Counted from the stretch's first letter, positions 10,217 through 62,402 are shown. The stretch: DNA of 64,000 nucleotides from Candidatus Poribacteria bacterium (GCA_963665235.2 CAXXLX010000001.1:1760001-1824000), one strand, 5' to 3'. Notes: generated by a model not told the origin, from the sequence alone. Made by a program: numbers and translations.

Positions 10217-10395
10217 TCGTTTCTCCTGAATAAACTATCAAATAGACTAACGGGTGGAATCCCTAAAATCCTGAAGATAGGCATGCCTGCAATTTTTAGC
10301 ACTCGGAGTAAATACATAGGATTATTATAACATACAACAGATAACGTGTCAAAGAAGATAATTCTTCAATTCTTCACAAACGGTGAGGGAGGCAC

Positions 10396-37670: not shown

Positions 37671-37696
37671 GAGAGAAATTCCTTCTGTTGTAATGT

Positions 37697-38434: not shown

Positions 38435-38608
38435 GTATGGAAACTCCTTTGGAGATGTGCGGTTTTTGCTCTTGTGAAAATGATAACATATTTGTTGAGG
38501 GGATGTCAAAGTCAAATGGGAATGGAAGGGTGGAAGAGTGGAAGGATGGATTTGGCGTGTGTGTTGACTATCTCGTCAACTTTTTTTTGGCGAAGGTATT
38601 GTTATTTA

Positions 38609-40800: not shown

Positions 40801-40879
40801 CTTTCCCTCTTATTTTTGTAACACTGCTATACGAGTGGAAATTATTGAGTTCCCCACGAATGAAATTTTTCCCAGCATC

Positions 40880-41000
40880 ATTTATGACAAATTAGACAAG
40901 GCATCTCATCGTCCTCATCATCATGGACATCGGTGAGGATCTCTTGGGTTTCGCAGCTTTCTTAAATGCCATCGCCTTTTCGGCGTTTGCTTTAATCTGA
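40880..41000 (-). repeat. Degenerate copy of the sspD 3' end (relic A)
   Basis: Aligns with 55251-55386; decodes to QIKANAEKA...TDVHDDEDDEMPCLICHK with a frameshifting deletion. Confidence 0.85.
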
Positions 41001-41067
41001 CCTAATATGTGTCCTTTTCCACAGTCCGTTTTTTGGAGTCTTAATCGTTACTACACCCTAAAATTTA

Positions 41068-41096
41068 ATTATACTACACTTGTGCAAAAAAGTCAA
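41068..41096 (-). promoter_or_regulatory. Sigma70 promoter for the GHKL/GIY-YIG unit
   Basis: TTGACT-N17-TATAAT on the minus strand. Confidence 0.7.
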
Positions 41097-41111
41097 AAAA
41101 TATTTTTACAA

Positions 41112-42123
41112 GGGTGTGTAAAGTTTTTGTACTTATGTTACATCTTTTTTTTCAGAATCGCGGATTAGCGCAGAGGACACGGATTGCACGGATTATCTCT
41201 CTTGTCAGAATCGCGGATTAGCGCAGAGGACGCGGAGAACGCGGATTTTAAGATGCGTAACAAGCCAAGTTTAGTGATTATAAGCTGACTATCGTCTAAG
41301 TCCGAGGGTTTGTAACCATGACTCCAAACGGTGTGGGACCGCCTACAGGGTGTGTAAAGTTTTTGTACAATGTTATGCAGCTTTTGTGTACAGAGCGATG
41401 TTCGTAGCAGCACACTTCATTGCCCATCAGAGACCCGTTCGTAGTAGGGCAATTTATTGCCCGTTCTTCCGTTCAGTATTCGGGCAAACAGCCCGTTCTT
41501 CGTAGGGAAACCATTTATTGCCCGTTCAAAACTTTACAAATACAATAGAACGCCTTACCGTTACTATAGTTTGGACAATATCTATGAACCTGATGCCCCA
41601 TTCGCAAAGCATTTCACATTTTCCTCACTGTTGCACACACATACAAAGCGGAGAAAATAGGCTCCAATGTGCCAAAGCGCAGCCCCAGCGGGACGATATG
41701 TTTATAGAAACACACAACGCCAACGCCATCAGCCCCGTAGGGGCGATATGTTTATAGAAACACACAACGCCTCACCTCTTAACCCCAGCGGGGCGATATG
41801 GTTATTGGGAAGACAATGCTGTCCGCCACAAGTCAAAAAAACACATACCCTTAATCACAAAACCTTGAGGCATACATATCTTAAAATCCGCGTTAATCCG
41901 CGATAATCCGCGATTTGCGGCGTATTCGCCCAAATGCGACGTGTATTCAGACAACACCGCGAATCCAAACTCACAAAATTGTCCAAAGTTTAGTAATAGT
42001 ATCACACATCAGGACTTACGCAAATTTAGCAGGACCATCGTAGGGGCGAGGTCACCTCGCCCGCTAGGTCTCACTTTAAATCCCATTATCTATGGACTTT
42101 ATCAACGCGCTGCGTAAGTCCTG
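41112..42123. repeat. Mosaic of REP-like palindromes, orphan MITE ends and short tandem repeats
   Basis: GGGTGTGTAAAGTTTTTGTAC at 41112 and 41348; 2x CAGAATCGCGGATTAGCGCAGAGGAC; 3x CCCCxxxGGGxCGATATG; AGGACTTACGCA element at 42010-42123. Confidence 0.75.
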
Positions 42124-42131
42124 CTCATAAG

Positions 42132-42164
42132 AAAATGGGAAGGCGCGTTACCTTCCCATTTTTT
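42132..42164. terminator. Intrinsic (probably bidirectional) terminator
   Basis: AAAATGGGAAGG-CGCGTTA-CCTTCCCATTTTTT just downstream of the OLD-family gene stop. Confidence 0.75.
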
Positions 42165-43410
42165 GATGTTCACTGTTTCCGAGGCTAAATATCCAGCAAG
42201 TCATTCAGGGAATCAAAGACTTTTTGGAAGCACTCAAGTTCTGGGTCGGTCAGATGGGTTTTAAGTGCATCAACGTTCGCACTGAAGTAGCGAGCGGGCC
42301 GGTAATGGTTGAACTTTGCTCCGTTTGGAAGTGGGTTATTCTTAAAGTAATCTTCAAGGCGACAAACAATACGCGGGGAACCCTGTTGTAGATTGTTCAC
42401 GCCCAAAGATGTCTCAAATTCCTCATTTACTAACCTCAGATAAAAATCAGGAGCAAACATATCCTCGATATCGGCTTCAGTGTTTCCTACAAAGTCAGCA
42501 TAAGTGAGGACCTGATTCTTCTTAAGTAATTTCTTCTTGTAAAGGCCTTCAATGCTTTGCCGATCTTTCTTCTGATAGTCAATGAGAGTCGCAATATTCA
42601 AATTCGTATTGGCCCCGATCAGGGCAACGAAGGTTGGGACTTTATCAGATCCTCCAACAGGCGTGATGGTCCAATCGTTACTGAGACCAGCTTTACCCTG
42701 TTGTTGGAGAAGGGCGGACATGATTTGGATATAAAGTAGATCTGATACCCCTTCTACAACAAGATTGTTCGGGCCAATAAAAAGCGTCTGATAAATTTCG
42801 TAACCGAGAGCACCTTGAAGTGGAAAAAGACTGTCCGGTATAGCTTCAAGCACTTCGGTGATAACTTTAGTCCCCTGCTGCTCATCCGAGAGGTTATCAG
42901 AGTCTGACTCAATGCTCAAGTCTTGCACAATTCGCACACGATCGAAATGCTTGGGGTCAACCATAAAGGGCGAATGGGTTGTATAGATGAGTTGATGATG
43001 AGGCGCGAGTTCTTCTTCAAAGTAGCGCAGAAGATCGCCTTGAGCTTTTGCATGAAGCGAGAGGCCTGGCTCATCCAAAAGCAGTATGAGATTTTGATTT
43101 TCTGAACGAAGTTTTTGATACCAAGCGAGAAAAGAGAAAAACCAAACAAAGCCGCGCGATCGAGTTCCAAGTAGAGTGCTGACGTAGTGTTTGGTGTCTT
43201 CTACACGGCCCCAGATATTTGTTCCGCTAGTCATATTTTGTGGATCTTCAGAGTGTGCTGGGCGAATGTCAAACTTCATACGAAGATGTTTGTTCTGAGA
43301 CCAATAAGGGAGCACATTTTCTGTGAGGGAGTTTCCAGCAGCTTCAAGTCGCGCAATTAGTGATTCTGTCTCAGGTGTTTTAATGATCTGGTCAAGTTTT
43401 AAACCTGCTA

Positions 43411-44641
43411 GTGCTAAGTCATGCGGTAATTGACGGATAAAGTTTTTTGGGTTTTATACGTGCATCGTCAGTTGTAAACCGCCAACTTATATCGGCACGT
43501 TGTTCGTTTCTTCGGTCTTGCCACGCCCGGATCTCCTTCTTTAGGGTCTCTTGGTCAGCAATACGCTTTGAAAGACAACCTCGAGATAGCACGGAGAGTT
43601 CAATCTCCGCCATATTCAACCAACTGCCATGCTTCGGGGTATAGTGAAACTCAAGTTTTTTCGCAATACGCCGGGCTTCATCGGGTTGAAAAGCTTTATA
43701 CAGCGAAGCGGTTTTATGTGTGTTGAGATTGTCACAAACGAGTGTAATCTTTTCAGCCTCCGGAAAATGGACATCAACTAAGTCTCGGCAAATGATGGCA
43801 AAGTCAATGCTTGTGCGTCTGTCGGTTACCTCAACGTGCCGAAATCCGTCAAAGGGTGCGAAAATCATGAACAGATTACTCACACCATTTCGCTGGTATT
43901 CATAATCATATCGGAGCGGAGCCCCTTCAACCATTGGTAAAGGACTTCGGGTTTCTTTGATGTGTTGTTTACTTGTTTCATCAACACAAACTACAGGATT
44001 TTTGGTATCTTGTGGACGCTGATAGACTTCGAGAACATCCTCCATCGCCGCAACGAACGCCGCATCTGCTTCCGGGGGAATACACCATTGCTTTTTTAGC
44101 CAAGGTCTAAGTTCGTTTTTTTTAGGACCCGGCGGATGGTCTCGTGAGATATGCTATCAAAATGTTCCAACTCTACCATCTTTTCCGCTAACAGTCGAAG
44201 CGTCCATCTCGCACACCCCTCTGGAGGTTCCGAGCAAACTAAAGCGATTAGATGCGCTTCTTTTTCACCATCAAACTTTTTGCCTGGGGTGTCTGAACGC
44301 TTCTTCGGGTTGAGTGCCGCGGTGAGATTTTCAAGCACAAAGGCTTTACGGGTTCTCTCAATAGTCGGTATTGAGACTTCAACAGCCTCTTTTATTTTAT
44401 CATCGGTGTAGGCGGGTACGAACTCGCCTTCATCGGCTTTCAAGAGGATCCTGGCACGGGTAAGTTTGCGTGCCGATTCTTTCCCAGAAGATATCAGAGT
44501 AATGAGATAATCTCGTTGGGACTTATCAAGCTTGACTTGATATTGTTTTGCTGCCATAATAGACTCCAAGTTATGAATAATCTTTTGAGTCTCATTATAC
44601 CATTTTTATCAATAACTATCAAACAGCTGTTGACTAAACAC
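43411..44641 (-). mobile_element. IS630-family insertion sequence
   Basis: TA duplication at 43409-43410 and 44642-44643; imperfect ends GTGTTTAGTCA / GTGCTAAGTCA; split transposase. Confidence 0.92.
43419..44569 (-). CDS. IS630 transposase (HTH orfA plus DDE orfB, joined by a -1 frameshift)
   Basis: orfA 44096-44569 and orfB with VDET, DNLNTH and WLNMAEIE; A8 run in CTAAAAAAAACGAAC at about 44116-44123. Confidence 0.88.
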
Positions 44642-45305
44642 TAGATGAATTAGCCCAAGTAGGGGATGGTCTGATTCATTAAGCGTATTATTTGCCTCTC
44701 GTTTTATGAGGCCCTCAATGTTTTCATGCCCCTTCAGTTGGTAGTACTCGTCGAAATAGAGGAACTTAGGAACGCGGGCAGTGAGATATTTCAAACCGGA
44801 CTCAGAGTTTGTACTTAAGCCATAGTATGTATTTTCGTCAGCGTTTACACTTAAGTCCTTGTCTACGAATTCTCTATTACTTATATATGAACTATTATAG
44901 ATAAGTTTGTTTGAGTATCCTTTATGAAGGGTAATGTTTGATAGTTTATCTTCAGGATATTCGGGTCCACAAAGTTCTTTAAGAGTATCTATCTCCTCGG
45001 AATCAAGTGTGTATGTGGCTTGGACAACTTCTGCTGGAGGTTCACCATCATCAATAGTCCTCTCGTAAGTCCTCAAGGTGCGGCGCGGATAGTCGACTAT
45101 AGCGGTGAAGTCTCCATCTTCCTCGTTGATTGGATTCAAACGGTAGAGTGCCTTTAGTAGGGCAGTCTTGCCTGATTCATTTTTCCCTACCAAGCAGGTA
45201 ACATCATCAATACTAAATTCAGTTGAGTCTTGAATGCTCTGAAAATTCGTAATACGGACCTTAGTAAGTTTCATGTTTTACCTCCAACTAACTCTGTTTT
45301 GCGGA

Positions 45306-46196
45306 TTACAATTCCCGGTAATCCCCTTTAAACACTTCTTTGACGTGCCAACCTATGAATTCTAATTCCGGGTAATAGGACTGTCTTTGTGGAAAGTTGA
45401 TTTTTTGCCCGTGGAAATCCATAAGCCACTCCTTAAAACCCTTTGTGCCATGTGCATCATCCGATACAAGAATTTCTAGATGTTTGGACAATGTAAAGGC
45501 TCCAAGGTCAAATAGTTTATGATGTAAGATACAAAGGGCTAATCCATTCACTTCTTTGTTAGGCCCACCATGTGATTTCCATTTGATATGAGCGGCTTCT
45601 AAGGCAAGAGGCATGGTTCCCAATTTTACATCAAAACCACAGACAGCACATTTATATTCGTAGGCTCTGATAACATTTATTCGGAAGTTGGATGGCCATA
45701 TTCTTGTGTCAAAACCTTGAAGTGGAAATTCAATACCAACGGCTTGTAAAATATCTTCGTGCAGTGAGGCAGTGAAGTGAGTGTTTAATAGGATCCGGAC
45801 TATTTCAAATGTCAGTTCAGAGTCATTTTGAAGATGCTCGAAAACAGTTTCGTTGAAACCTCCAGAAACATTATAGTTCCTTAAATCGGTTATGTATGCG
45901 TCCCCACTGGATGTTTGGCGAATTCTATTGGCATCGGATACTTCCCAAATTCCATCATTTTGTAGCCGCCAAAACGGGAATTGAGGGTTATAACGATCTC
46001 GTCTAGGCCCAAACTCTCTCAGTAGATTTTCGAGATTTTCCTCTATATCATCAGTATAAGAAATAAGTCTATCTTCACCCCGTAACAATTTGCCAATGGC
46101 GTACAGGATCAACAACGGTTTATGTGGTGCTCTTTCGTCTCCGCTTATCGACTGTCGCAGCGTTTGAAATCTCTGAAGAATTTGGTCCCTGGTCAT
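45306..46196 (-). CDS. SBD-HNH phosphorothioate-dependent restriction endonuclease-like protein
   Basis: N-terminal RAPHKPLLIL...PFWRL (sulfur-binding-domain-like); C-terminal CAVC...AAHI...NGLALC..HH..FD. Confidence 0.8.
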   Translation of the reverse strand: MTRDQILQRFQTLRQSISGDERAPHKPLLILYAIGKLLRGEDRLISYTDDIEENLENLLREFGPRRDRYNPQFPFWRLQNDGIWEVSDANRIRQTSSGDAYITDLRNYNVSGGFNETVFEHLQNDSELTFEIVRILLNTHFTASLHEDILQAVGIEFPLQGFDTRIWPSNFRINVIRAYEYKCAVCGFDVKLGTMPLALEAAHIKWKSHGGPNKEVNGLALCILHHKLFDLGAFTLSKHLEILVSDDAHGTKGFKEWLMDFHGQKINFPQRQSYYPELEFIGWHVKEVFKGDYREL

Positions 46197-46212
46197 TGGT
46201 AATCCCTAAGTA

Positions 46213-46320
46213 TTATTTATGACAAATTAGGCATAGTTCCTCATCGCCCTCATCATTGTGGACATCGGAATTTTTATCAGGCGACGATTCGGTTTCGCCT
46301 TTTTCCGGATTTGCCTTAAC
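46213..46320 (-). repeat. Degenerate copy of the sspD 3' end (relic B)
   Basis: Decodes to KAKPNRRLIK...DVHNDEGDEELCLICHK-stop; aligns with 55251-55380. Confidence 0.85.
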
Positions 46321-46371
46321 CTAACCTAGCATGTGTCCTCTTCCGTAGGTTGATACTATACATCTTACGAA

Positions 46372-46400
46372 ATTATACCACATATATGCAAAAGAGTCAA
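46372..46400 (-). promoter_or_regulatory. Sigma70 promoter for the HNH/OLD unit
   Basis: TTGACT-N17-TATAAT; the region is homologous to 41005-41135. Confidence 0.7.
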
Positions 46401-46416
46401 AAAATATTTTTACAAA

Positions 46417-47155
46417 GGGTGTGTAAAGTTTTTGTACAAAACCGGTGTAAATGTTACACTTTTGACACAAAGTGTAACATTTACTTCTCAGTGCTGCAGT
46501 CGCACAAACTCACGCCACGTCTATGTTTTCAAGCGGTTTCGACCCGTCTTTTTCACAACACAAAAAAAATGAAGTGTGTCATTTCGACCACCGGTTTTCG
46601 TTTATCAGTTCTGCCTACTTTTCTTACCGATGTGTCTGCTATTTTTCTCTGCCGCTCCGGTGTAAATGTTACACTTTTGACACAAAGTGTAACATTCGCT
46701 TCTCGGTGCTGCAGTCGCACAAACTCACGCTACGTCTATGTTTTCAAGCGATTTACCCCTATCTTTTTCGCAACACAAAAAAAACAAAATGTGTCATTTC
46801 AACCGCAGATTTCAGGTATCAGTTCTGCCTACTTTTCTTATCGTTCTGCCTCCTATTTTTTGTGCTATTTGTGTGCAAATGTTACACTTTCGACACAAAA
46901 TGTAACATTTGGTTCTCGGTGCTGAATGTGCCCAAACGCCTGACCCATCTATGTTTGTCTGCCGTTTACACCCCCCCTTGGACGATTTTCAAAAAAAAGA
47001 AATGTGACACTTTCGCTATCGATGTCTGGTCAGGTGAGTTGCAAACCGTGCCGCTTTCCTCCGAAAAATGTTTTGGTTCTCTGTTATGTTAGTTGCAAAT
47101 GGTTTGATTTTTCTTCATAAAAAATATCGCAGACGTACAAAAACTTTACACACCC
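46417..47155. mobile_element. 739-bp MITE with perfect 21-bp terminal inverted repeats and internal ~215-bp tandem repeats
   Basis: GGGTGTGTAAAGTTTTTGTAC (46417-46437) and its inverse (47135-47155); TTTTACAAA on both flanks; AATGTTACA...TGTAACATT palindromes at 46450, 46665 and 46878. Confidence 0.82.
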
Positions 47156-47348
47156 ATTTTACAAATGATTTTTTTCTTCTGTTGAAAACAGAATTGAAAA
47201 TCTGAATAGCGGATTATTGCATAGTAGTTTGGTATCGGAATAGGTTTCTCTGCTGGGTTCTGTGCTTGTCTTTCTATGTGAAAAAGGTTGCCGCCGTTCG
47301 CGACGGCGGCGATTCTTCTGGGCCATATTCTGCAATTGGTTGCTTCGT

Positions 47349-48434
47349 TCAACTTAACGCTTGCTCCAGTTTTGCCCCAGTACTTTCAGGCGGCAGCCTA
47401 CGAATCATGTCATCTGCCATAGCTTTTCCGCCAACTTCCCCAGTCCTGCCTTTGTATTCTCCATCCTTACGCCAGTCTATTCCGGACACAGCTTCGACGA
47501 GCCGCTTAACGTTGTCCCAATTCATACCCATCTCCTCGCTATAACTACGCGAAAAAATGTGTGCCCCTGTATGCGCCCACGCTATGAAACCTGTTAACTC
47601 AAGCAGTTTATACTTGAAGGCATACCTTGGGCTGCCCTTTATTTCGGGATTATCGAGTTTCTCAATATCCGACCATTCCTCATAAAGCTGGTCAGCAATT
47701 ATCGTCCAAAACCGGGACATGAATTCAATCTTTTGACTAACATCTAAGTCTTGAACAGCCCCAATAGAAAACAAGCGTTTAACCTGCTTTTCTACACTAT
47801 TAAGATTGAAAAGATGCATGCGCTGCATGCTAGTACGGGTAATCCTTCCCTTAAATAGACTGTCGGATTCTTCGTTGAGCCCCCACCCAACTTGCACTTC
47901 ATCTGTATCTTCTAGATATGCAGTCAGTGCCTTAGGCACTCCCTTTTGGGAGTTATTGACGACGACAAACTCCTGCTTTTCCTGCTCAAGAGTGAGATCA
48001 GGCAAAAGGATGAAGGAGATGTCACGTACATCGTCTTCGGATTCATACAAATCCACAAAACCACCAAGACGATGCTGCCCATCAACAATAGCTGCCCGCG
48101 CTTGGATGATAAGCCGCCCCGAATCTTGTTCATGTCCGCCGGGTTCAAATTGCCAATTTCCGCGTCCAGAAAGAAGGACCGGCGGCACCACGCTGTTTGG
48201 GTTCTCCTTAAGGAACCGGGCGAAGGCTCTCATTCGCGATAGTGAGCCGGGCCGCTGGTAACCTTCTTCTACAACCTCATTAAGACATGTCTTGGAACTG
48301 GGTTCAATGACCGGAACAAAAGTCACGTTCTTAACCTTATCTGAAGGAATTGTCCCAAATAGGTACTTCTGGTCCCCTTGAGTCTTCTGGATGACTCCGT
48401 TAATTTCGCCAATTCCGTTAATCTCGTTGTTCAT
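47349..48434 (-). CDS. DGQHR (DndB/DpdB-like) domain protein
   Basis: GYQR, IVDGQHRL and F..VN..QK motifs. Confidence 0.88.
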   Translation of the reverse strand: MNNEINGIGEINGVIQKTQGDQKYLFGTIPSDKVKNVTFVPVIEPSSKTCLNEVVEEGYQRPGSLSRMRAFARFLKENPNSVVPPVLLSGRGNWQFEPGGHEQDSGRLIIQARAAIVDGQHRLGGFVDLYESEDDVRDISFILLPDLTLEQEKQEFVVVNNSQKGVPKALTAYLEDTDEVQVGWGLNEESDSLFKGRITRTSMQRMHLFNLNSVEKQVKRLFSIGAVQDLDVSQKIEFMSRFWTIIADQLYEEWSDIEKLDNPEIKGSPRYAFKYKLLELTGFIAWAHTGAHIFSRSYSEEMGMNWDNVKRLVEAVSGIDWRKDGEYKGRTGEVGGKAMADDMIRRLPPESTGAKLEQALS

Positions 48435-48437
48435 TAT

Positions 48438-49802: not shown

Positions 49803-50086
49803 TCCAACTCCTCAATCTCGTATCTTGCCATCGAATTCCCGCTCTCTTTACGAATACGTAACTTAATTCCCTTAAAGAGGTCTGAGCTTTTCAGCAGTTC
49901 TTCGAGCGGTTCACTTAACGACTTCGCTGATATGTAAAATAGATACTCAACACTTGTTCTAATCTTCTGGACATGCAGAATAGGAACATACCCCTTAAAT
50001 GTTAAGACGACATTGGGTTCATATATGATTTCAAGTTCTATCTAGCCTATGCCGACTTTTAGTGAGCTCGGATTTTCATTTGACAT
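49799..50086 (-). pseudogene. 95-codon small gene with an in-frame TAG at codon 15
   Basis: GGAGGG RBS, ATG at 50086, TAG at 50042-50044, then open to a TGA overlapping the next ATG (ATGA). Confidence 0.65.
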
Positions 50087-50194
50087 AGCTATACCCTCCG
50101 ATTTTATAAACAGGCCTTGTACAAGAGGAGACTCACAGGATTGAACGCAACCGTTATTACAAACGACATCATCTCCTGCCTACACATCCCATTG

Positions 50195-50704: not shown

Positions 50705-50721
50705 ATTGTCCTCCTAATAGC

Positions 50722-52848: not shown

Positions 52849-53089
52849 GAGATTTCTCCTTTTCTATTTCGGATATGTTCAGCTTCTCCATGAGAAAATC
52901 GCCTGCCTTGTAGCATATCTCGTTTACTTGTTTCTGAATATGTGTGCTTTGCACAAGATTTTTCTTCTCTGCCTGAAGGATTTCGACTATAACATCAACA
53001 AGTTTTTTCTCATATCCTTCATACCTCTCCTCAAGGAATTCACACTCCCTGAGAATAAGGTTTGCCATCTTTTGCGGGTTGAATGACAT
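52823..53089 (-). CDS. Small helical protein coupled between the helicase and the SMC ATPase
   Basis: Probable start MSFNPQK at 53089; overlaps the ATPase start. Confidence 0.7.
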   Translation of the reverse strand: MSFNPQKMANLILRECEFLEERYEGYEKKLVDVIVEILQAEKKNLVQSTHIQKQVNEICYKAGDFLMEKLNISEIEKEKSHETHQRGI

Positions 53090-53099
53090 AATTCCCCCT

Positions 53100-55217: not shown

Positions 55218-55250
55218 CCCATTATCTTTCTCCTTTCAAATACGCTCAAG

Positions 55251-56087
55251 CTATTTATGGCAAATCAGGCACGGTTCCTCGTCGTCCTCGTCGTCGTGGA
55301 CATCGGTGAGGATTTCTATGAGTCGACGATTCGGTTTCGCCGTTTTCTTAGATGCTATCGCCTTTTCAGCGTTTGCCTTAATCTGCGCTATTCGTTCGGG
55401 TTGCGACAACTCTTCTAAACTTTCACCTTGACACCATGTAAACCTTTCGCCTGTTTCCGGATTAAATTTCTCGTAATCCTTGGCGAGTTCGAAAAGGTCG
55501 GGATGCTGCTCTAAAAGCCCTACCCACTCAGATTTGCGTTGGAAGAAGCAGAAATAACATCCGGAACGCGTCCGCCACTGGTAATAATCGGGCAAGCCAA
55601 GGCCACTTTCCTCCAGAATTCGGTAGACATCCTCTTTAGTAATGCCATCCTCTTTGAAGGGATATTTCGGTTCAATATTACCCAGGCCGGAGGTCGTTGG
55701 AGGCTTATAGCCGATTCGGTCTTCGTCGGCGCGGATAGCGATGTAGTGATACGCTTTGTCATCGCCGACGTATTCCTCAAAAGGTCTTATTTTGAGGTTA
55801 ACAGTGCACCAACGGACTTGCGGCGATGGCAGCAGACCTCCCAAAAGCGTCAACCAGTGATCGAAATCTCGGTTTTTGTGGGAATCGGTATCCATGTTGA
55901 GGCGTTCAATCTTTTTGCCGAGAAATGCCTCTAACCGGTCGAGAAATTCGTAGGTCTCCGGCAATTCCTTACCGGTATCAGAAAAGAAGTATTCCATCTG
56001 TGGTACTCTGTCTCGCATGTAAACTGCAAGTGCGGAGCTATCTTTTCCGCCGGAAAGCCCAAGGAGATGCCGTATTTTTTGTGCCAT
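55251..56087 (-). CDS. sspD: PAPS-reductase-family protein, SspD-like
   Basis: SGGKDS PP-loop, RWCT, IRADE, RSGCYFC, acidic tail ending CLICHK; follows the DUF4007 and ATPase genes. Confidence 0.78.
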   Translation of the reverse strand: MAQKIRHLLGLSGGKDSSALAVYMRDRVPQMEYFFSDTGKELPETYEFLDRLEAFLGKKIERLNMDTDSHKNRDFDHWLTLLGGLLPSPQVRWCTVNLKIRPFEEYVGDDKAYHYIAIRADEDRIGYKPPTTSGLGNIEPKYPFKEDGITKEDVYRILEESGLGLPDYYQWRTRSGCYFCFFQRKSEWVGLLEQHPDLFELAKDYEKFNPETGERFTWCQGESLEELSQPERIAQIKANAEKAIASKKTAKPNRRLIEILTDVHDDEDDEEPCLICHK

Positions 56088-56098
56088 GTTTTCTGCTC

Positions 56099-59000
56099 CT
56101 ATTTTTCAAGTTCCTGCATCCATTTTTGTGAAATTCGCGCCAAAATAGCGATGTGAAGTTCAGGATTATCGGCGACGTTATGAGTATCAAAAATCTTCCT
56201 GATTTCAGTCGCTATCTGCGTAGCCTGTTCATCAGCGGTTGATGGTAAGGTTACAACGCGTTCCTGCTCAGACTGGTTTGGTGCGGTGATACCTACGCGA
56301 ATAGGTTCACCCGCTGCCAATTCAGGATGTTTCCGTTTTTCGTAAGAGACCGCTTCAAAATGCCTAAATTTTCTGGCAAGTTGAGAGAGATTGCTTTCGA
56401 ATCGTGCTTTATCCAAGTCTACCCACGACAGAGGTGGTTTTTTAGCGAGATAGGTTGCAATCGCCTCAAGCCAGCTACTAAAATCGTGCCCACCGCTGCA
56501 AACTTGGACTAAAAATCCTTTGAGCTCGGTTTCAACTGCTATTGTTAACAGTGGTTCAGCCCTATCGGCTAATTCAGCACGGAGTTTTTCCCTTGATGGT
56601 GTTAAAGTGAAGGCTTCCACCAGCATCCGCTCTATGGAATTCAGCAAGACCTCGTAAGCCTGTTCTAATTCGGACAAGGCATCTTGTAACGTGTCGAAAA
56701 ATTCTGAAATTAGTTTTGGATTTAATGTCTGCGCGCCAAAAGCAGAAAATCCGAATGCTTCCGGGAGTTGTTTAAAGAGGAGTTCGTCGGGTTCACGTGC
56801 GCTCAGAACAGTTTTACGGAGATTTTTCGCATTATCACTCAATTCTTGTGTTGACAGAGTGTACTTCGGAAGTTGAGCAATAGCGCGTATGAGCGGGGTG
56901 ACGACAGTCAACAAATCTGGGTTTTCGGTTTCCACCGGTTGGTTGAGCATCTGTAGAAGTTGCGCCAACAGATCAGCACGGATACCTGACATCCGAAATC
57001 GCTTCAGTTCAAATTGTTGTGGTGCCTTAAGCAGCCGTTCAAAGACAGGCATTGACCACTCCGCTACGAAGGAGCCGTTTTCATAGAGGGCAATTTCTGT
57101 TTTGTAGTGGAGTATCACCGCACATAAGAGAATAGGCAGGGGACCACGCCGCACACCGTAAGGGGGTGCCATCAGGTGTTCATAGAGTTCCGAAATGGGC
57201 TGTCGTTCACCTTCACATTTTTCAAGAAAAACCTCAATTGCTTTCCACGTCGGTGCCATTCTGTTTGCGTCAGCGGTTTCCGGCGGGTGAAATCCACGGT
57301 ACCTTGAAACCTCACGATGTATTCCGGTATTCCGTAAGAGAGAGCGGTAGATGCTCATTTCGGCAGGATACCCAGTAATACCGAGGTTTTTCCTATCTCC
57401 ATTTTCAAGCATTCGTTGAATTAATTTCTTTCGAGCGGTCGTTGCAGCCCCGGAGATTTTACGCCGATTAATCAGTTCGTTTTGAATGCAAGGGGTTTTG
57501 TGATAAACTGCATCACAGATATTTGACAGGTATGCGTTTCTTGTCCCTTGAGAGTCAATAGTCCCTACAGATTGTCCTTTATGATACCATATACAAGTGT
57601 CTTTCTTAGTCCCACCAAAAATTGCTGTTAATCTATGAGATATTTCTTGTTCCGCTTGACGCTGCTGGACTGAAAGTTCATCTCTTGCCACTGGGTCGCC
57701 TTCTAATTCCGGGGTGTTTTCGGAAACCCAACGTAGACTGGCGAGTTGCGTAACAGTCTCTTGTAGTGTGCCAATAGCGCGTGGAATTGCAATCAATACC
57801 TCTTTGCGTTCTGCGAGTTTGGAACTGCTCGCCTTTTCGGTGAGCTGCTTGACTTCATGTTCGTTTGCGGGCAATGCATAAAGCACAAGGCCATCTGCAT
57901 CCTCAGGGGGCTCCTCTAAATCGGCATCAAAATTTTCGAGCTCGGTATACCGGACGACAAAGTATCGCAAAGTACCCGTCTCAAATAGGTGTCTTCGTGC
58001 AACGAGCGGGCGCGTCGGCAAATAACGTGCCAGCTCGGCGGCGAGAGCACCTTGCATGTCAATATGCCTTTCCGCTTCGCGGAGTTTTGCCTCAATGTCA
58101 ATATCGCTCCCTTCCCAAAGCGCGTAAGCCTTATTGTAGCGGCGATAGATGACAATTGAACGTTTTCTTAGCATAGTGAGTGCTTCCTCAAATTCACTGA
58201 TAAACCCCTCTGTCCTAACATCTAAGGCGGAACGGAGGAGTTGCCCTGAGGCTTTCAGATTCGGCAGGACTTCACCAACAATATTAAGGACACCAATCGT
58301 CTTAATCAATTGAATCGGCACAGGAGAGGGGTCTGGTAGTCGGTCTAATGCTGATTCAATTTCTGCCCATTTCTTGCCGTTGCGTGAGGCGTACAACCGA
58401 TGTTCCATGTTAGTCTTAAGATAGTCGTAAAGGTTGGCGATTGAAAACAGCGGCGAAAAGGTTCCATTGCAATTTTGGGTAGAGAGGAAGTCTTGTAGGC
58501 CATAAGGTTCACTTGAGCTGAGAAAAGCGAAGAGCGAACGTTCGTTTTGCGCGAATCGTCGGAAAATTGGATTTATAACAAGGGCGACTATTGGGTGCAG
58601 GGGCAGACAATTTTTCAGAAGTTCGCCAAACTCGTCCTCGGTAAGTTGGCTCGGTTTAAGGTCGAATTCAATAGGCAAGGATAAATTTTCTTCCTTATCC
58701 TCTGAAGTCCTTTCGATAGCAGAACCGATGAGGCGAAGAATCTGTTCTGTGGGTTCTATAAAAGCTATATCTTCAAACCGTCCCTGTACCTTTGCCCACT
58801 CCTCCTGTTGTGATTTTGCTAATTTGTTAGCGTATTGTTCAAAGGCTTGGTGCAGAATCGTCAGAAAAAGGAGAGGTGTCTGCTTACTTCGCGTAGCCAA
58901 TTCAGCAAGGGTTTGTAGCACGAACACATCGCCTTGTGCAGGCTCTTGTGCGGCGTACTCAAGGAACTTTCCAAGTTCATCAATTACCAATAACAAACCG

Positions 59001-59590
59001 TGTCCACCCTTTTTCTTGATAGCACGCGTTGCTGATTCAAAAAGATATGTAATTTCAGACGCTTGCAGCGGCGTATCCGTTCACATCGATTTTTCAAGAG
59101 TTTCCCTGATTTTTCGCTGAAGTGAACTATTAGAAGGGACTCCGAAAGTCCTGAGTCCATTCTCCAAACCGCGCAGTAGGGCAGTCGAGAGTGGGGCACG
59201 TTCACCAGAGATAAGCACAGGACAGAAATCTGATAGCGGTTGTCCATTCCCATTTGTACTTGTGAATCTTTCGTATAACGAAACGTCGCCGCCCTTCAAC
59301 AAATTTAGAGCTTGTTGGGTTGTCGAAGTGCTGGGATCTCCGAGCAGCTTCGCGGCAAAAAGCGCGAATGCCGATTTTCCTGAGCCATAGGGCCCCGTAA
59401 TCGACCACGCCCTTGATGTCGCTCCATTTTCAAGCGTTGAAATGACACGCGATAACATCTCCCGAGCTGTAACGGTCAGGACGTACCCATCTAAGACGTT
59501 CCTTGTATCATAGAAATCGCGTTCCAGATGAACCGAGCGGTGGAAACGTCCTTTAACCTGATAGAGATGTGACAAAGGAATATTATCCAT
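56099..59590 (-). pseudogene. sspC: SspC-like large ATPase (1163 codons) with one in-frame TGA
   Basis: Walker A GPYGSGKS in 59081-59590 and Walker B LLVIDE in 56099-58996 share a frame; TGA at 59081-59083 (LEKSM*TDTPLQASE). Confidence 0.75.
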
Positions 59591-60509
59591 AATACCTTTC
59601 TAAAAGTTCCGTTGAGTCTAAATCTTTGTGTCTATAAACCTGTTTTAAACCAGCCGTTTCATCGTATTGCAACGCACCTTCGGTGAGTTCGTTGAGGGAT
59701 TCAAGGTAAGTAGTCATTGTGTCCTCGTCTAATCTAAAAATTCGGCCCGGACTTAATGGTGCGTACATCAGTTCTGAAAACGGTAATTCATTTCTTTTAT
59801 GGAAACTTGCATCCCAAAAGGCGACAAGTGTCGAGGCAAACATTTCAACCGGCAGCGTCTCTTTTTCGCCGCGTTGGAACTCATATCCGTTGTTTTCTGG
59901 CAATTCTGTGATTAAATTGAGTTCAACAAGTGGACAGTCAAAACTCTCCTCAACGATTGTAGTGGTGTGACGTGACTGACAATAGGTTCGGATAAAACAA
60001 CGGATATCCCGTTGAAGTGTATTTTCAGAGACAGGACGCATAGCTGGTTTCTGTTGTCGTGCCCATTCGGACAATTGTTTTTTAAATATGTCAGGTGTGA
60101 ATTGATTTTCTCTGAAAACGTTAAATGCCCAATACCACAAGGTTGCATGATTCATATTAGTCGCAATCTTCCAGTGAATCAACCATAACGTGGCGGGGTC
60201 GTCAAGGTACGGGTCAAATCCGTTGTCGTCGTTAAAAATGTCTCTGCCGAGCGGCGTGAAAACGAATCGCCCACGTTCACGGCCGTCCGCTTTGATCAGC
60301 CCAGCAACACTACACCAGTGCCGGATGGAGGCCACCATATTTTTCCCCACACCTAAAGTAACGGAGACGTTCTCTGCCGAAAAGACAGTCGGATCTTCTC
60401 TGACAGCATCGACCCCCTTCTTCAGCCATGTGTACCGAAACGGAAAAGTTTGGTGGCCGGAGAAGGATAGATTAATTATCTGTGGTGAAGTGCTATACAC
60501 AGTGTTCAA
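59583..60509 (-). CDS. sspB: DUF4007 family protein, SspB-like
   Basis: FSGHQTF..RYTWLKK, LGVGKNMV.SIRHW, DPYL...TLWLIHW, PLVELNLI. Confidence 0.82.
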   Translation of the reverse strand: MNTVYSTSPQIINLSFSGHQTFPFRYTWLKKGVDAVREDPTVFSAENVSVTLGVGKNMVASIRHWCSVAGLIKADGRERGRFVFTPLGRDIFNDDNGFDPYLDDPATLWLIHWKIATNMNHATLWYWAFNVFRENQFTPDIFKKQLSEWARQQKPAMRPVSENTLQRDIRCFIRTYCQSRHTTTIVEESFDCPLVELNLITELPENNGYEFQRGEKETLPVEMFASTLVAFWDASFHKRNELPFSELMYAPLSPGRIFRLDEDTMTTYLESLNELTEGALQYDETAGLKQVYRHKDLDSTELLERYYG

Positions 60510-60923
60510 ATCTTACCTCCCAGAAATGGACCGGCCCCCGATGCAAAAAACAACGTAGGCGAAAAAGGGGAGTTTAGATCGAAGGGGTGAATAGTCGGTA
60601 ACGAAAAGTGCCCGCGGCGAGAACCATTGGGCAAAATAGTCCTCGCGCAGGCACAATGATAGTGCAAAATGCCGAGAAAATTTATTTGGTTTTTACTTAA
60701 CAGATGTGGGGTAGAAGGGGGGGGTAAAACGCAATTTCAGTGCCGCAATCCCTGTTGGAGCTTAGCACAGCAAGCGAGCGACACGGACCAATTCCGCCAA
60801 AATGGCAAGCATCCGGGGTGTTTATTCTCTCAATTGGGGTGTTAGCATGTCCATATATCATTAGCGTTCCCTGTGTGTTGCAAAAAGGAGCTGTGTATCG
60901 CGGCGATGTAGTATTATTTTTTA

Positions 60924-60952
60924 ATTATACTACATTTTGACGCGTTTGTCAA
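60924..60952 (-). promoter_or_regulatory. Consensus sigma70 promoter upstream of the ssp-like operon
   Basis: TTGACA-N17-TATAAT; homologous to 62160-62195. Confidence 0.75.
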
Positions 60953-61013
60953 GTTAAAATTCGTTAGTTCTGCATAGATGTCATGAAAAAATAACGTTAA
61001 GCACCCCGTCATA

Positions 61014-62003
61014 TTACTGTTTCAGAACTTCTTCACGGTGCCACGCCAAAGCATCTTGAGCAGGATAATGTTGTGTGTTTCTAGGTTGCCATATAAGCTT
61101 GTCACGTAATTCGGTTAACATCGAACTCGTTGGCCCTCGCTCGGACATGCAGGGTGAGACAATAATTTGGTATGTTTCACTTAAAGAAATTAATCCAGCG
61201 TCAAAAGCCCAGTGGTGCGATTTGCAGAGAGAAATTCCATTCCGGACATCGTCATTATATGAAACAGAAAACGGAATGATGTGAGCAGCATCAGTCAAGC
61301 TCTCTCCGCTCGATGCACGGACGTGTAATTCACAAACTGCACAGGTGTGTTTGTAGATTTCCATAATCCTCTTGCGGAAACCTGCACTCCGAATTGGAGT
61401 GCCTACTTGAATTGCCTCTGCTTTTTTATGAGATGAAAATGGGCGTCCGGCATCTTCTAGCAATGATTCGCTGTATTCTTCGATGTCCTTTTCAATCTCT
61501 TTTTCCGCGGTTCTTCGTTGTTCTTCAATTACCTTTTCAACTTCATACCTAATATTTGAAAAATAGTGGCTGATAATAGTTTCGCGGAATATTTCCCGAT
61601 ATTCAGGTATAGCTAGTAAAACACAAAGAGGATCATCTAGCTTAGCTGCAGCGTTAACACTAAGAAGTTGATTAGGTGAGGGGGTTGTCCCAGCAGATCT
61701 TGATTGCAGTTTTTGTGGCTTAAGAAACCAGAAACCCTTAGTTTTTAAATGAAAAAACGGATTATTAATACTGGGGTGCCGGTCCTCCGATTCATTTGAT
61801 TTATTGAAAACCTCAATCAGCTCTTCAAAAAAAGAAGATTTATTCTTGTAAATTTCACTAAAGGGAATATTATTTTCGTAGAGTTCACCGCTTTCAATCA
61901 TCTCAATGATTATTAACAAGAGAAACGGTCTGTGAGGGAACTGTCTTTTATCCTGCAAATTCTTAATCTTTTCGATATATTTTTGTAGGACACTGTTAAC
62001 CAT
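61014..62003 (-). CDS. SBD-HNH phosphorothioate-dependent restriction endonuclease-like protein
   Basis: PHRPFLLL...NPFFHL..GFW at the N-terminus; CAVC...AAHI...NGISLC..HH.AFD. Confidence 0.8.
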   Translation of the reverse strand: MVNSVLQKYIEKIKNLQDKRQFPHRPFLLLIIIEMIESGELYENNIPFSEIYKNKSSFFEELIEVFNKSNESEDRHPSINNPFFHLKTKGFWFLKPQKLQSRSAGTTPSPNQLLSVNAAAKLDDPLCVLLAIPEYREIFRETIISHYFSNIRYEVEKVIEEQRRTAEKEIEKDIEEYSESLLEDAGRPFSSHKKAEAIQVGTPIRSAGFRKRIMEIYKHTCAVCELHVRASSGESLTDAAHIIPFSVSYNDDVRNGISLCKSHHWAFDAGLISLSETYQIIVSPCMSERGPTSSMLTELRDKLIWQPRNTQHYPAQDALAWHREEVLKQ

Positions 62004-62041
62004 TTCTCTGTGAGACTCCTATAGTAAGTCCTCTTGTATTC

Positions 62042-62115
62042 TTTATGGCAAATCAAACACGGTTCCTCGTCATCCTCGTCGTGGACATCGTGAGGCTTTC
62101 TGTTTTGGTGATGCC
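62042..62115 (-). repeat. Degenerate copy of the sspD 3' end (relic C)
   Basis: Decodes to DVHDEDDEEPCLICHK; aligns with 55254-55310. Confidence 0.85.
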
Positions 62116-62159
62116 GCCCTTCTATTCTGAATAAATTTTAGCACAAATCTTGCTATTTA

Positions 62160-62188
62160 ATTGTACCATATTTCGACGCATTTATCAA
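62160..62188 (-). promoter_or_regulatory. Sigma70 promoter for the HNH gene at 61014-62003
   Basis: TTGATA-N17-TACAAT. Confidence 0.6.
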
Positions 62189-62402
62189 GTTAAAATCGCG
62201 TTTTTTACCTAACATAGATCTTCTATCTTCTCACACTTCTCTTCAAAAAGAGGGGTTTGAGACATATTCATCTTTTAACTTGACAGCTTAGCAAAAATGC
62301 ATTAGACTTAAGGACATGCAAACCGGTATCATACCAAATTAATTTCTGATGTTACCCCGAATGGGTTGCCTACGAGAAAAATATGTCTGAGGACACCACG
62401 CC

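Follow-up and report, generated by a model that had tools for sequence, protein, structure and literature searches.

Three stand-alone effector cassettes in a phosphorothioate (Ssp-type) defence island of a Poribacteria-like genome, that of a sponge symbiont, are each preceded by a dead fragment of the 3' end of sspD. We consider it probable, at roughly two chances in three, that the cassettes are the orphaned remains of sspD-effector units, which were stacked by sspD-anchored recombination and subsequently shortened by erosion from the 5' side. The window is the whole 64,000-nt stretch of DNA analyzed, and positions are counted from its first letter (Table 1); relatives are genomes under Candidatus Poribacteria.

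One sspBCD Operon and Three Separate Effector Cassettes

The island contains one sspB-sspC-sspD operon, which is followed by a PbeABCD-like set and then by a trio made up of a small ORF, a 454-aa protein (p454), and a DndB-like protein. sspA is absent from the island, and the PADLOC matches of 15 island proteins include no model for SspE, SspF, SspG, or SspH. PbeA lies directly after sspD and is the in-operon effector, as was recognized in a preliminary description of this DNA, in which the PLD-helicase of the intact operon was said to be preceded by the sequence that recurs elsewhere in the island. The PbeB-like protein, PbeC, and the 169-aa protein are encoded in the same order as in G074 and G052; the 169-aa protein, which takes the PbeD/DndE position and is kept with PbeC in both of these genomes, has no match in Pfam, PADLOC, or NCBIfam. 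Profile searches of the same three collections returned no match for p454.

The stand-alone cassettes comprise a MORC-like GHKL ATPase with a GIY-YIG-like nuclease, a 296-aa SBD-HNH endonuclease (HNH296) with an OLD-type protein, and a second HNH endonuclease of 329 aa (HNH329). The names first given to these effectors stand for GHKL, OLD, and HNH296. HNH296 scores 335.5 bits against NCBIfam NF045808 (cut-off 180), which places it among SBD-HNH proteins of the ScoMcrA/SprMcrA type, and its sulfur-binding domain matches PDB 7cc9 (E 1e-10) and 5zmo (E 1.1e-07). The C-terminal part of OLD aligns at 76% with a 457-aa OLD-type open frame in G062. The GIY-YIG match is weak; homologues stand behind the GHKL gene, after a full-length sspD, in G120 (59%) and G051 (81%). 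HNH329 reaches 128.5 bits, below the NF045808 cut-off of 180, and is a relative rather than a scored member of that family.

The island is decaying. A premature stop interrupts sspC, an IS630 element has severed OLD, and the small ORF of the trio is broken. As assembled, the TGA in sspC splits Walker A from the remainder, and the gene does not encode an intact SspC; in relatives sspC is a single ORF of about 1160 aa.

Table 1. Features of the defence island, in coordinates of the window
Feature	Position	Strand	Remarks
GIY-YIG-like nuclease (162 aa), cassette 1 second gene	38609-39097	-	weak Pfam GIY-YIG match, E 0.0043
MORC-like GHKL ATPase (568 aa), cassette 1 first gene	39094-40800	-	HATPase_c_3 E 2.2e-25; MzaB-like; MORC2 in PDB
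Stub R1	40880-41004	-	degenerate final ~45 sspD codons, frameshifted; BLASTN 40880-40999, 76%, E 3.9e-23
Promoter P1	41068-41096	-	TTGACT-17-TATAAT, 11/12; within 5' unit common to R2
21-nt motif copy	41112-41132	-	~15 nt upstream of P1 -35; genome-wide motif
Non-coding stretch	41140-42184	.	dispersed repeat families; 200-700 BLASTN matches per segment in genome
OLD-type ATPase/nuclease, C-terminal part	42185-43315	-	severed by IS; AAA_15 C-terminal part; Old, GajA matches
IS630-type transposase, two ORFs	43419-44569	-	inserted in OLD; DDE_3 and HTH_32; multi-copy contig depth
OLD-type ATPase, N-terminal part	44609-45274	-	AAA_15 positions 1-155; Old and GajA matches
SBD-HNH endonuclease (296 aa), cassette 2 first gene	45306-46196	-	HNH_2; N-terminal sulfur-binding domain
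Stub R2	46213-46322	-	degenerate final ~37-45 sspD codons; BLASTN 46214-46305, 81%, E 1.2e-19
Promoter P2	46372-46400	-	TTGACT-17-TATAAT with TG, 11/12
MITE-like element	46399-47173	.	inverted 39-nt ends holding 21-nt motif
DndB-like DGQHR protein (361 aa)	47349-48434	-	Pfam DndB E 1.5e-22; TIGR03187
p454 (454 aa), partner of DndB-like gene	48438-49802	-	no known family; 65% to G088 homologue
Small ORF of trio	49806-50087 (approximate)	-	broken by in-frame TAG; TGG at that codon in G088
PbeB-like (94 aa) + PbeC (CxC ABC ATPase, 708 aa) + 169-aa protein	50195-53107	-	PbeC E 9.7e-53
PbeA, PLD/HKD nuclease fused to SF2 helicase	53100-55217	-	PADLOC PbeA E 4.3e-202; PLDc_2, ResIII; TIGR04095
Stub template	55251-55390	-	final 135-140 nt of sspD
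sspD, full length	55251-56087	-	PADLOC SspD E 5.6e-115 over whole model; Pfam PAPS_reduct
sspC	56099-59590	-	PADLOC SspC matched by both pieces; in-frame TGA at 59081-59083
sspB	59583-60509	-	Pfam DUF4007 E 5.5e-91; PADLOC SspB E 1.9e-101
sspBCD operon promoter (before sspB)	60924-60952	-	TTGACA-17-TATAAT, 12/12
Second SBD-HNH-type endonuclease (329 aa), cassette 3	61014-62003	-	HNH_2 E 8e-13
Stub R3	62042-62115	-	final ~17-24 sspD codons; BLASTN 62042-62101, 88%, E 1.8e-14
Promoter P3	62160-62188	-	TTGATA-17-TACAAT with TG, 10/12

The sspD 3' End Occurs Four Times in the Genome

Within 5,314,612 bases the sspD 3' end is present exactly four times (repeat search and whole-genome BLASTN, query 55251-55400): as the template inside sspD and as three degenerate, non-coding stubs (R1, R2, and R3) of its last 24-45 codons. 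All four are in one island, and three of them are broken. No fifth copy exists in the 5.3-Mb genome, the next BLASTN match having an E value of 0.37; at the protein level the genome holds a single full-length sspD, and all other matches are C-terminal fragments. Both searches thus bear out the original observation that up to the last ~45 codons of sspD recur as degenerate copies at three sites, and the BLASTN count rules out a genome-wide repeat. R1 is shifted out of frame by a 13-nt deletion, R2 carries two indels and has no start codon, and R3 has lost its stop codon.

Every stub lies 16 to 80 nt upstream of its effector, with a different effector set behind each, and 45 to 65 nt downstream of a near-consensus sigma-70 promoter with a 17-bp spacer; this arrangement had been described correctly at the outset. 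A promoter scoring at least 10/12 is found within ~65 nt upstream of 3/3 stubs, whereas random 80-mers score so in 20 of 2000 cases. At the R1 junction, contig record 9 of run X4 spans GHKL, R1, and P1 with 0 differences; none of the contig matches listed bridges the R2 junction.

The identity of the stubs to every sspD tested is 74 to 88%, so no donor lineage can be named, and third-position changes common to R1 and R2 could reflect parallel AT drift. The spacer between R1 and GHKL is colinear with the sspD-GHKL spacer of G120, and that between R2 and HNH296 with the spacers separating sspD from HNH in G131, G150, and G088, sspD being full length in all four genomes. Homology between R1 and R2 runs from a 21-nt motif through the promoter, the leader, and the truncation point into the stub; divergence begins directly past the stop codon, where the effector-specific spacers start. 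As R1 and R2 combine a common 5' unit with different native 3' spacers, the breakpoint of at least one exchange must lie within the stub or at its terminus.

The Slot after sspD Is Hypervariable in Relatives

Our sample comprises 39 non-redundant full-length sspD genes (29 best matches and 13 regions picked by hand, minus 3 duplicates). The gene that follows begins 0 to 228 nt past the sspD stop, and the 39 instances fall into 12 unrelated families (HNH296, 9; PbeA, 7; GHKL, 2; and nine others). Mapped onto a 40-row sspD tree, the family of the downstream gene requires 27 changes, compared with a mean of 27.8 after shuffling; 74 of 200 shuffles are as low. The post-sspD slot is therefore hypervariable, and its content is scrambled with respect to sspD phylogeny.

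Two of the three cassettes conform to the expectation that their effectors should be found after intact sspD in other genomes: HNH296 and GHKL with GIY-YIG do so with colinear spacers, and in G120 and G106 the gene immediately behind full sspD is GHKL. HNH329 does not. Its homologues are present in 72 of 112 family genomes (the window's own genome counted), but none of the 11 loci examined adjoins sspD or a stub, which leaves R3 without comparative support.

Stubs are rare, occurring in about 6 of 110 family genomes; a self-search of 79 wider sspD loci with 7-kb flanks gave 0 to 1 stubs.

Truncated and Tandem sspD Copies

Other genomes provide a graded truncation series. G074 has a second, full sspD, and G082 a partial sspC with sspD; sspD-HNH pairs without an sspC match in the upstream sequence fetched occur in G150 (4.6 kb) and in G134 and G125 (1.5 kb each). 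G077 has a stub of 107 codons ahead of an HNH296 homologue, G062 a ~40-codon stub with an abutting 12/12 promoter, and G088 a 16-codon stub ahead of a small-ORF/p454/DndB-like trio; a decayed sspD-PbeA-PbeC in G053 also belongs to the series.

Such a series might be produced by deletion without any part for sspD as an anchor. Complete sspBCD-effector operons would have accreted side by side, random deletions would have removed the redundant modification genes, and a 3' stub would survive only because deletions into the effector start are selected against. We regard this explanation as unlikely, although similar scars are found at other genes: the last 17 to 24 codons of HNH296 precede other genes in like islands of G062 and G077, and a relative with 96% identity (run X6, contig record 28) has lost p454 and retains its last ~78 nt. 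In addition, the decayed sspD-PbeA-PbeC of G053 has multiple internal deletions, sspD of G127 is internally deleted, and erosion is the only model that easily fits R3 upstream of sspB. The tandem copies argue against it. Those of G074 and of G082 are sisters (SH-aLRT 99 and 100) despite their different effectors, and are thus mutually closest rather than foreign arrivals; homology between the G074 copies runs from start codon to stop codon and is bounded by them. The G082 pair is mosaic, with 70 to 80% identity in the 5' half and 90 to 93% in the 3' half. Nor would independent deletions give R1 and R2 one truncation point and one 5' unit together with different native 3' spacers.

The proposal that the sspD 3' end is a recombination handle for effector capture is accordingly upheld in part. 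The exchange breakpoint of R1/R2, the mosaic tandem sspD, and the stubs and tandem copies of other genomes speak for it; the rarity of stubs, the formation of stubs by plain deletion, and the separation of HNH329 from sspD speak against it. Since plain deletion leaves 3'-end stubs of other genes too, the sspD stubs are better seen as scars of recombination and erosion than as dedicated capture sites.

Promoters, Dispersed Repeats, and Possible Functions of the Stubs

The promoter blocks had been taken for two pairs of duplicates. Those of P1 and P2 (41067-41132 and 46371-46437) are 91% identical over 67 nt; they contain the 21-nt motif, of which the genome has 222 occurrences. Blocks 60920-60960 and 62156-62196, before sspB and at P3, are 85% identical over 41 nt, but the sspB promoter resembles the unrelated promoters of a tRNA and of a TetR-like gene, both on contig C2, just as closely (85% over 40 nt and 83% over 41 nt), so this pair is poor evidence of duplication. 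The supposed duplicates belong partly to a genome-wide family of motif plus promoter and partly to the generic promoter consensus. Dispersed repeats also occupy the neighborhood. The non-coding stretch at 41140-42184 has a very high summed contig depth, and the MITE-like element at P2, which has >100 related copies in the genome, contains three tandem units of 213 to 215 nt with 34-nt palindromes (repeat search).

In every stub, in G053, G062, and G088 as well as here, the last ~45 nt of sspD are the best-preserved part, and in the window a stub always lies between promoter and effector. Both features would be expected if the last ~50 nt of sspD and the spacer were kept as a leader for effector translation, stability, or regulation. 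We judge such a cis function to be quite improbable, as the four leaders have no significant fold (z of -1.12, -0.56, +0.58, and -0.64), no Rfam family reaches its gathering score in 36000-64000, and the stubs are unequal in length and carry indels. Moreover, GHKL and GIY-YIG lie about 5 kb after sspD in G051 with no stub detected, and none of the 11 loci with an HNH329 homologue has a stub.

The recurrence, in one orientation, of a unit made up of a promoter, a conserved element, and a variable gene also brings to mind a dedicated, integron-like capture system, with the sspD 3' end as the site for a site-specific recombinase. Such a system is highly implausible here: the would-be sites are degenerate, unequal in length, and unstructured (fold z of -1.12 to +0.58), and the arrangement is rare among relatives. 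In agreement with the preliminary description, in which no integrase was visible, the ORFs profiled in 38.6-62.2 kb include no integrase or other site-specific recombinase, but only the IS630 DDE transposase inside OLD.

A Proposed History of the Array

In the history that we favor, stacking by sspD-anchored recombination followed by erosion, a new effector would enter the slot right after sspD, with the highly conserved sspD serving as homology. Single-crossover insertion, homology-facilitated illegitimate insertion, or unequal exchange are possible routes; every one of them would duplicate sspD in whole or in part and push the older effector downstream. Redundant sspD copies would then be eroded from the 5' side until a dead 3' stub remained joined to the old effector, and each stand-alone cassette would be the remnant of an earlier sspD-effector unit. 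Orphaned effectors may survive where a promoter precedes them, and presumably still read the phosphorothioate marks that the sole surviving sspBCD writes in trans. The position of R3 upstream of sspB is not explained by simple insertion after sspD. If the sspC stop is real, writing of the marks may have ceased, and the array may be a collection of relics instead of a functioning arsenal. On this history, nuclease sets stranded with dead sspD stubs record how such islands swap and stack weapons.

Comparison with Known Systems

The closest parallel is the orphan modules of Rhs/CDI toxin loci, and not an integron. Integrons have an integrase, folded attC-like sites, and one shared Pc promoter. 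The island resembles them in its variable genes of one orientation separated by a recurring element; it differs in having no integrase, no folded attC-like site, and a promoter-like site for each unit, and in that its recurring element is a pseudogene fragment.

Among phosphorothioate systems, SspABCD with SspE or SspFGH shares the three-gene sspBCD operon with adjoining effectors (PMC8092258). According to the available part of that report, a single SspABCD module is able to support two distinct effector sets simultaneously, their protection being additive, and effector distribution over the SspBCD tree is patchy; this part does not mention sspD stubs before effectors. The island differs in its effectors (PbeABCD-like, SBD-HNH, OLD, MORC-like GHKL with GIY-YIG, and the DndB-like trio), and it has no PADLOC matches to SspE or SspFGH, no sspA, and an interrupted sspC. 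As far as PbeABCD is described in the accessible text of PMC10853773, the island set has the same order of HKD nuclease-SF2 helicase (PbeA), small protein, CxC ABC ATPase (PbeC), and small protein in the DndE position, but is coupled to sspBCD rather than dndBCDE; no DndE model matched the 169-aa protein in that position.

In Rhs/CDI loci, as presented in the part of PMC3967940 available, stacked modules, each behind a displaced fragment of the conserved part of the "main" gene, lie after a full-length copy of that gene; a module orphaned in one strain is joined to the main gene in another; and homologous recombination between main gene and fragment has been proposed, and partly demonstrated, as the route of rearrangement. 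Likewise, each of the three island modules is preceded by an sspD 3'-end fragment, and the orphans are attached to full-length sspD elsewhere in the case of GHKL with GIY-YIG and HNH296, though not HNH329. The island fragment, however, derives from a separate upstream gene, sspD, and not from the variable part's own reading frame; its stubs measure 60 to 125 nt at 74 to 88%, as against 522 bp at 95% in Salmonella (PMC3967940, same part); and its cargo consists of anti-phage nucleases rather than interbacterial toxins. A further difference is that the island orphans are complete genes with their own promoter-like sites, so no fusion would be needed for their expression.

sspD 3′-End Stubs in the Ssp Defense Island

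The last 135 to 140 nt of sspD recur in three places in the Ssp defense island (herein R1, R2, and R3), with BLASTN E values of 3.9e-23, 1.2e-19, and 1.8e-14, respectively. A search with 55251-55400 against the whole assembly of 5,314,612 bases returns these copies and sspD itself, four places in all, with nothing else below E 0.37; the stubs are thus confined to the island and do not belong to a genome-wide repeat. Protein searches of the genome recover one full sspD and otherwise only C-terminal fragments. All three copies are dead: R1 has a 13-nt deletion and is split over two frames, R2 has two indels and lacks a start codon, and R3 is without its stop codon and does not share the frame of the gene that follows. 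We regard them as scars and not as a machine. The donor lineage is not pointed to by any one sspD 3′ end; the best identities (76 to 88%) are spread over many genomes.

That the copies are assembly artefacts is unlikely for R1 and R3, because a short-read contig of sequencing run X4 (record 9) spans the GHKL gene, R1, and its predicted promoter P1 with 0 differences, and because runs X1 through X4 contain 92 to 95% of the sampled words of 53000-62400, all of this evidence coming from one study that possibly includes the source sample. For R2 the same cannot be said: among the matches listed for contigs aligned to 40750-60700, none bridges R2 or the sspC stop.

The whole island is encoded on the minus strand, and family and profile matches of its proteins agree with the gene names assigned earlier.

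Features of the island and its borders, in the direction of transcription; P1, P2, and P3 are sigma-70-type promoters predicted upstream of R1, R2, and R3
Feature	Positions in the window	Strand
Right-flank gene	62403-63209	
P3, R3, HNH endonuclease (329 aa; HNH329)	62042-62115 (R3)	minus
sspB promoter TTGACA-17-TATAAT (12/12) and 400-nt leader		minus
sspB, sspC, sspD	59081-59083 (in-frame TGA in sspC); 55251-55390 (sspD 3′ end)	minus
PbeA (HKD nuclease fused to SF2 helicase), 94-aa ORF, PbeC (CxC-type ABC ATPase), 169-aa protein in PbeD position		minus
Small ORF, 454-aa protein, DndB-like DGQHR protein	~49806-50087 (small ORF)	minus
MITE-like element	46399-47173	
P2, R2, SBD-HNH (296 aa; HNH296), OLD-type ATPase split by IS630	46213-46322 (R2); 45306-46196 (HNH296)	minus
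Dispersed repeats, 1 kb		
P1, R1, MORC-like GHKL ATPase (568 aa; GHKL568), GIY-YIG-like protein	40880-41004 (R1)	minus
Copies of the 21-nt motif	41112-41132; 41348-41368; 46417-46437; 47135-47155	
Two paralogous genes at the left border (244 and 272 aa)	36936-38515	

Judged by its stops in sspC and the small ORF and by the IS630 insertion in the OLD-type gene, the island is in decay. The in-frame TGA in sspC separates the Walker A part (169 aa) from the remaining 965 aa, and sspC in relatives is a single ORF of ~1160 aa; this genome may have lost a working modification module, or the assembly may be wrong at that base. The small ORF, upstream of the 454-aa gene, has an in-frame TAG where the related genome G088, whose homologue is a conserved 97-aa ORF, has TGG. 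BLASTN and protein searches gave nothing significant in the way of a further sspD stub in the interval that separates the small ORF from the 169-aa gene (about 50090-50194).

The two left-border paralogues are adjacent, and their middle and C-terminal parts are nearly identical. The right-flank gene is single-copy in 109 of 112 family genomes (the window's own counted), and at 29 loci of this gene the flanking 1.5 kb contains neither ssp genes nor HNH329 nor any left-flank gene of the window, so an empty site of the island was not defined. The window contains no tRNA.

Effector Families Downstream of Full-Length sspD

An sspD match is found in 146 of 159 genomes of the order (E ≤ 0.05), mostly as a single full-length gene; the closest records by sspD are titled Candidatus Poribacteria and reach 91% protein identity. 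We compared neighborhoods at 42 places (29 best sspD matches and 13 chosen regions), or 39 once three duplicates of the same genomes were removed; the sample is not random, because the 13 regions were chosen for features of interest in earlier searches. In these 39 instances the gene after full-length sspD starts 0 to 228 nt past the stop codon and represents 12 unrelated families: HNH296 type (9 instances), PbeA (7), a small GIY-YIG protein (4), a 208-aa protein of unknown family (4), a 638-aa HATPase protein (3), GmrSD type (3), GHKL568 type (2), GmrSD_N + HNH (2), a 227-aa GIY-YIG protein (2), and singletons (3). Mapped onto a maximum-likelihood tree built from 40 sspD genes (the 39 and the window's own), the downstream family requires 27 changes, the minimum being 11; shuffling gives a mean of 27.8, and 74 of 200 shuffles are as low as the observed value. 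The slot after sspD is therefore fully scrambled relative to sspD, and a single well-supported clade of 10 rows holds five different downstream families.

All three stub-marked effectors had been expected to lie directly after intact sspD in other genomes. This holds for the GHKL568 and HNH296 sets, whose stub-effector spacers align with intact-operon spacers (R1 with that of G120; R2 with those of G131, G150, and G088), but not for HNH329; homologues of the latter occur in 72 of 112 family genomes (the window's own counted), and at the 11 loci examined neither sspD nor a stub lies within 1.5 kb.

The HNH296 type, the commonest gene right after sspD, belongs to a family that NCBI names "phosphorothioated DNA-binding restriction endonuclease." This poses a functional puzzle, as the gene most often found right behind one that helps to write the mark encodes a nuclease named for binding phosphorothioated DNA. 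Self-recognition, as in SspE, and restraint by the mark are both possibilities for its coexistence with the host mark.

Intermediates and Deletions in Related Genomes

Searches with the last 45 SspD residues covered 65, 40, and 5 family genomes and found truncated sspD 3′ fragments apart from the full gene in six of them, with a detection limit such that stubs of less than ~15 codons or more decayed ones would escape. Four of the six (G062, G077, G088, and G092) are among the 40 genomes, which form one genus; G053 is one of the 5, and G127, with an internally deleted gene, one of the 65. Another genome, G064, has an sspD fragment of residues 152 through 278. Two full sspD genes are present in G074 (6.6 kb apart) and G082 (11 kb apart).

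These loci can be ordered into a graded series. In G082, sspC′ and sspD with two further genes are followed by a truncated sspC, another sspD, and an HNH296 homologue; in G074, sspBCD, PbeA-C, and the 169-aa gene are followed by a promoter-like site, then by an entire second sspD with two genes after it. The 20 kb fetched for G150, which reach 4.6 kb upstream of sspD, contain sspD-HNH296 but nothing that matches sspB or sspC; for G134 and G125, the 1.5 kb fetched on the upstream side of sspD contain nothing that matches sspC. Shorter remnants follow sspD and two genes in G077 (a 107-codon stub, then an HNH296 homologue) and in G062 (a perfect TTGACA-17-TATAAT promoter abutting a ~40-codon stub, then two genes). 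In G088, sspBCD and HNH296 are followed by a 16-codon stub, which precedes the trio of small ORF, 454-aa gene, and DndB-like gene; in G053 a stub precedes remnants of PbeA and PbeC. No locus goes further than the window, which has three stubs. Beyond these relatives, another 79 sspD loci spread over many phyla, each searched against itself with 7-kb flanks, gave at most one candidate second 3′ end, in a Vicinamibacterales record near the locus edge, which may be a second whole gene.

No full-length sspD was found in G092 (90% complete), where locus L050 has an sspD stub (8296-8397) and an HNH296 homologue (9979-10869); no stub was detected upstream of the homologue, the sspD stub lying further downstream, before other genes. 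Orphan effectors can evidently outlive the whole modification operon.

The tandem sspD copies of G074 and G082 are sisters on the tree (support 99 and 100, respectively). They came about, or were homogenized, inside their own lineage; import in the form of whole foreign operons is not their origin. The G074 pair is similar from the start codon to the stop codon and no further. The G082 pair (L048 7460-8275 and 18582-19409) shows 70 to 80% identity in the 5′ half and 90 to 93% in the 3′ half, and is a recombination mosaic inside sspD.

R1 and R2 can be aligned from a 21-nt motif onward, across the promoter, a portion of the leader, and a truncation point common to both (near codon 233), as far as the stub; homology ends right after the stop codon, where each runs into its own effector's native spacer. 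Because the leader has no further copy in the genome, it is unlikely that a mobile unit struck two sspD genes at one and the same position. A simpler account of the alignment is that one truncated unit had its downstream partner exchanged, or its 5′ part copied, through a recombination event inside the stub or at its end. This shared 5′ unit with different native spacers is the best direct support for the proposal that the sspD end serves as a recombination handle. An integron-like machine, for which the ORFs searched in 38.6-62.2 kb yield no recombinase and the leaders no structured site, is highly improbable. We also think it quite improbable that the stub is kept as a leader for a function in cis, as the four leaders have no significant fold and 36000-64000 has no Rfam match at gathering score.

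Leftover 3′ ends are not peculiar to sspD in these islands, since stubs of the HNH296 type (last 17 to 24 codons) precede other genes in G062 (L044 396-446) and G077 (L045 3560-3631). In a ~96% identical relative (run X6, contig record 28) compared over 48438-50194, 50171 is joined directly to 48515; this relative is without the 454-aa gene and the small ORF, and keeps the last ~78 nt of the former before the DndB-like gene, a 3′-end stub produced by plain deletion. Plain deletion is also active in these islands, a point in favor of pure accretion and erosion as the origin of the array, an explanation that we consider unlikely.

Promoters and a Mobile 21-nt Repeat

Each stub has a predicted promoter of at least 10/12 within ~65 nt upstream, a score reached by 20 of 2,000 random 80-mers of this genome; summed over the region, promoter-like sites are no more numerous than in shuffles, so only the best sites stand out. 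The promoter blocks had been described as two duplicated pairs. P1 and P2 are true copies (91% over 67 nt), whereas P3 and the sspB promoter (85% over 41 nt) are not distinguished as a pair: the sspB promoter is equally like tRNA and TetR-gene promoters on another contig, and the likeness may perhaps be just the local consensus of strong promoters. In none of the five relatives compared does the sequence upstream of sspB detectably resemble that of the window, and the stub promoter of G062 has no match to the region upstream of its own sspB; these regions therefore do not bear on whether a deletion fused the operon promoter to a stub.

The P1/P2 block contains the 21-nt motif, of which the genome has 222 copies (up to 2 mismatches). 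A sigma-70-type promoter of at least 10/12 lies within 80 nt on one side of 90 of these copies and on the other side of 3; for 47 of the 90, the −35 element starts 15 to 17 nt after the motif. Spacers and downstream sequences are non-homologous between copies, many of which lead into ordinary genes. Counts among relatives are patchy (165 in this genome, 135 in G074, and also 71 and 60), with zero copies in 58 of 65 genomes of one genus. The MITE-like element has 39-nt inverted ends carrying the motif and three tandem units of 213 to 215 nt, each with a 34-nt palindrome; it has >100 related copies in the genome. The patchy counts and the inverted ends indicate that the motif belongs to mobile repeats, which either insert at a fixed distance from promoters or bring them. 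The P1/P2 block is one member of this genome-wide pairing of repeat end and strong promoter. Two of the promoters that would re-arm the cassettes are thus among many near-consensus promoters spaced at a constant distance from the end of a mobile, 21-nt-terminated repeat.

Discussion

The last 17 SspD residues are nearly invariant in 42 genes, and sspD is far more conserved than anything downstream; such conservation supplies homology by which a related strain could contribute a new gene to the slot. Insertion by a single crossover, or one-sided insertion of the homology-facilitated illegitimate type, would duplicate the part of sspD carried by the incoming piece, placing the incoming gene behind intact sspD and the older gene behind a whole or partial copy. 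The duplicate would then be eroded from the 5′ side, and the effector would persist where a promoter is present or arrives. Insertion plus erosion would account for the graded series, the colinear spacers, the sister tandems, the mosaic pair, and the chimeric nature of R1/R2. R3 is left unexplained, as it is located upstream of sspB and precedes a gene of an otherwise free-standing family; it may be the remainder of an older operon.

A single SspABCD can serve both SspE and SspFGH, their effects being additive (PMC8092258), and by analogy the orphans might still work with the sole sspBCD; the sspC stop makes this doubtful in this genome. We give a probability of only about 0.3 to the combined reading that the sspD end is a live, recurrent homology anchor by which phosphorothioate-sensing effectors are added, stacked, and reshuffled in these sponge symbionts. 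The orphan cassettes would then be working and promoter-re-armed, their re-coupling to sspBCD by stub-by-sspD recombination would be possible, as with Rhs orphan toxins, and sspD stubs would be a general marker for finding unknown Ssp-linked effectors.

The island is a readable record of the diversification of modification-based defense, in which one writer is kept, duplicates are lost, and reader and nuclease orphans accumulate. With 12 families uncorrelated with the sspD tree, the post-sspD position is a fast-turnover slot and hence a place to seek new phosphorothioate-linked effectors, for example MORC-like GHKL + GIY-YIG, OLD, GmrSD-type, and several proteins without known family. A stub tags a gene as formerly Ssp-linked even with no ssp operon remaining; the stubs both document the fast slot and give a handle for effector discovery.

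The component parts (Ssp, PbeABCD-like, SBD-HNH, OLD, and MORC-like GHKL) are already known. No description of sspD-stub-marked effector cassettes was found in the literature covered, the supplementary tables of PMC8092258 and PMC10853773, which may list relevant gene neighborhoods, excepted. The closest described architecture is that of the orphan rhs-CT/rhsI and cdiA-CT/cdiI arrays. There, displaced fragments of the conserved gene each stand before an old module, a module that is orphan in one strain is joined to the main gene in another, and recombination between main gene and fragment occurs (PMC3967940). In contrast to those arrays, the sspD stub belongs to a separate gene and is short and diverged, and the orphans here are whole genes with predicted promoters. 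The parallel suggests a shared mode of growth of polymorphic conflict loci.
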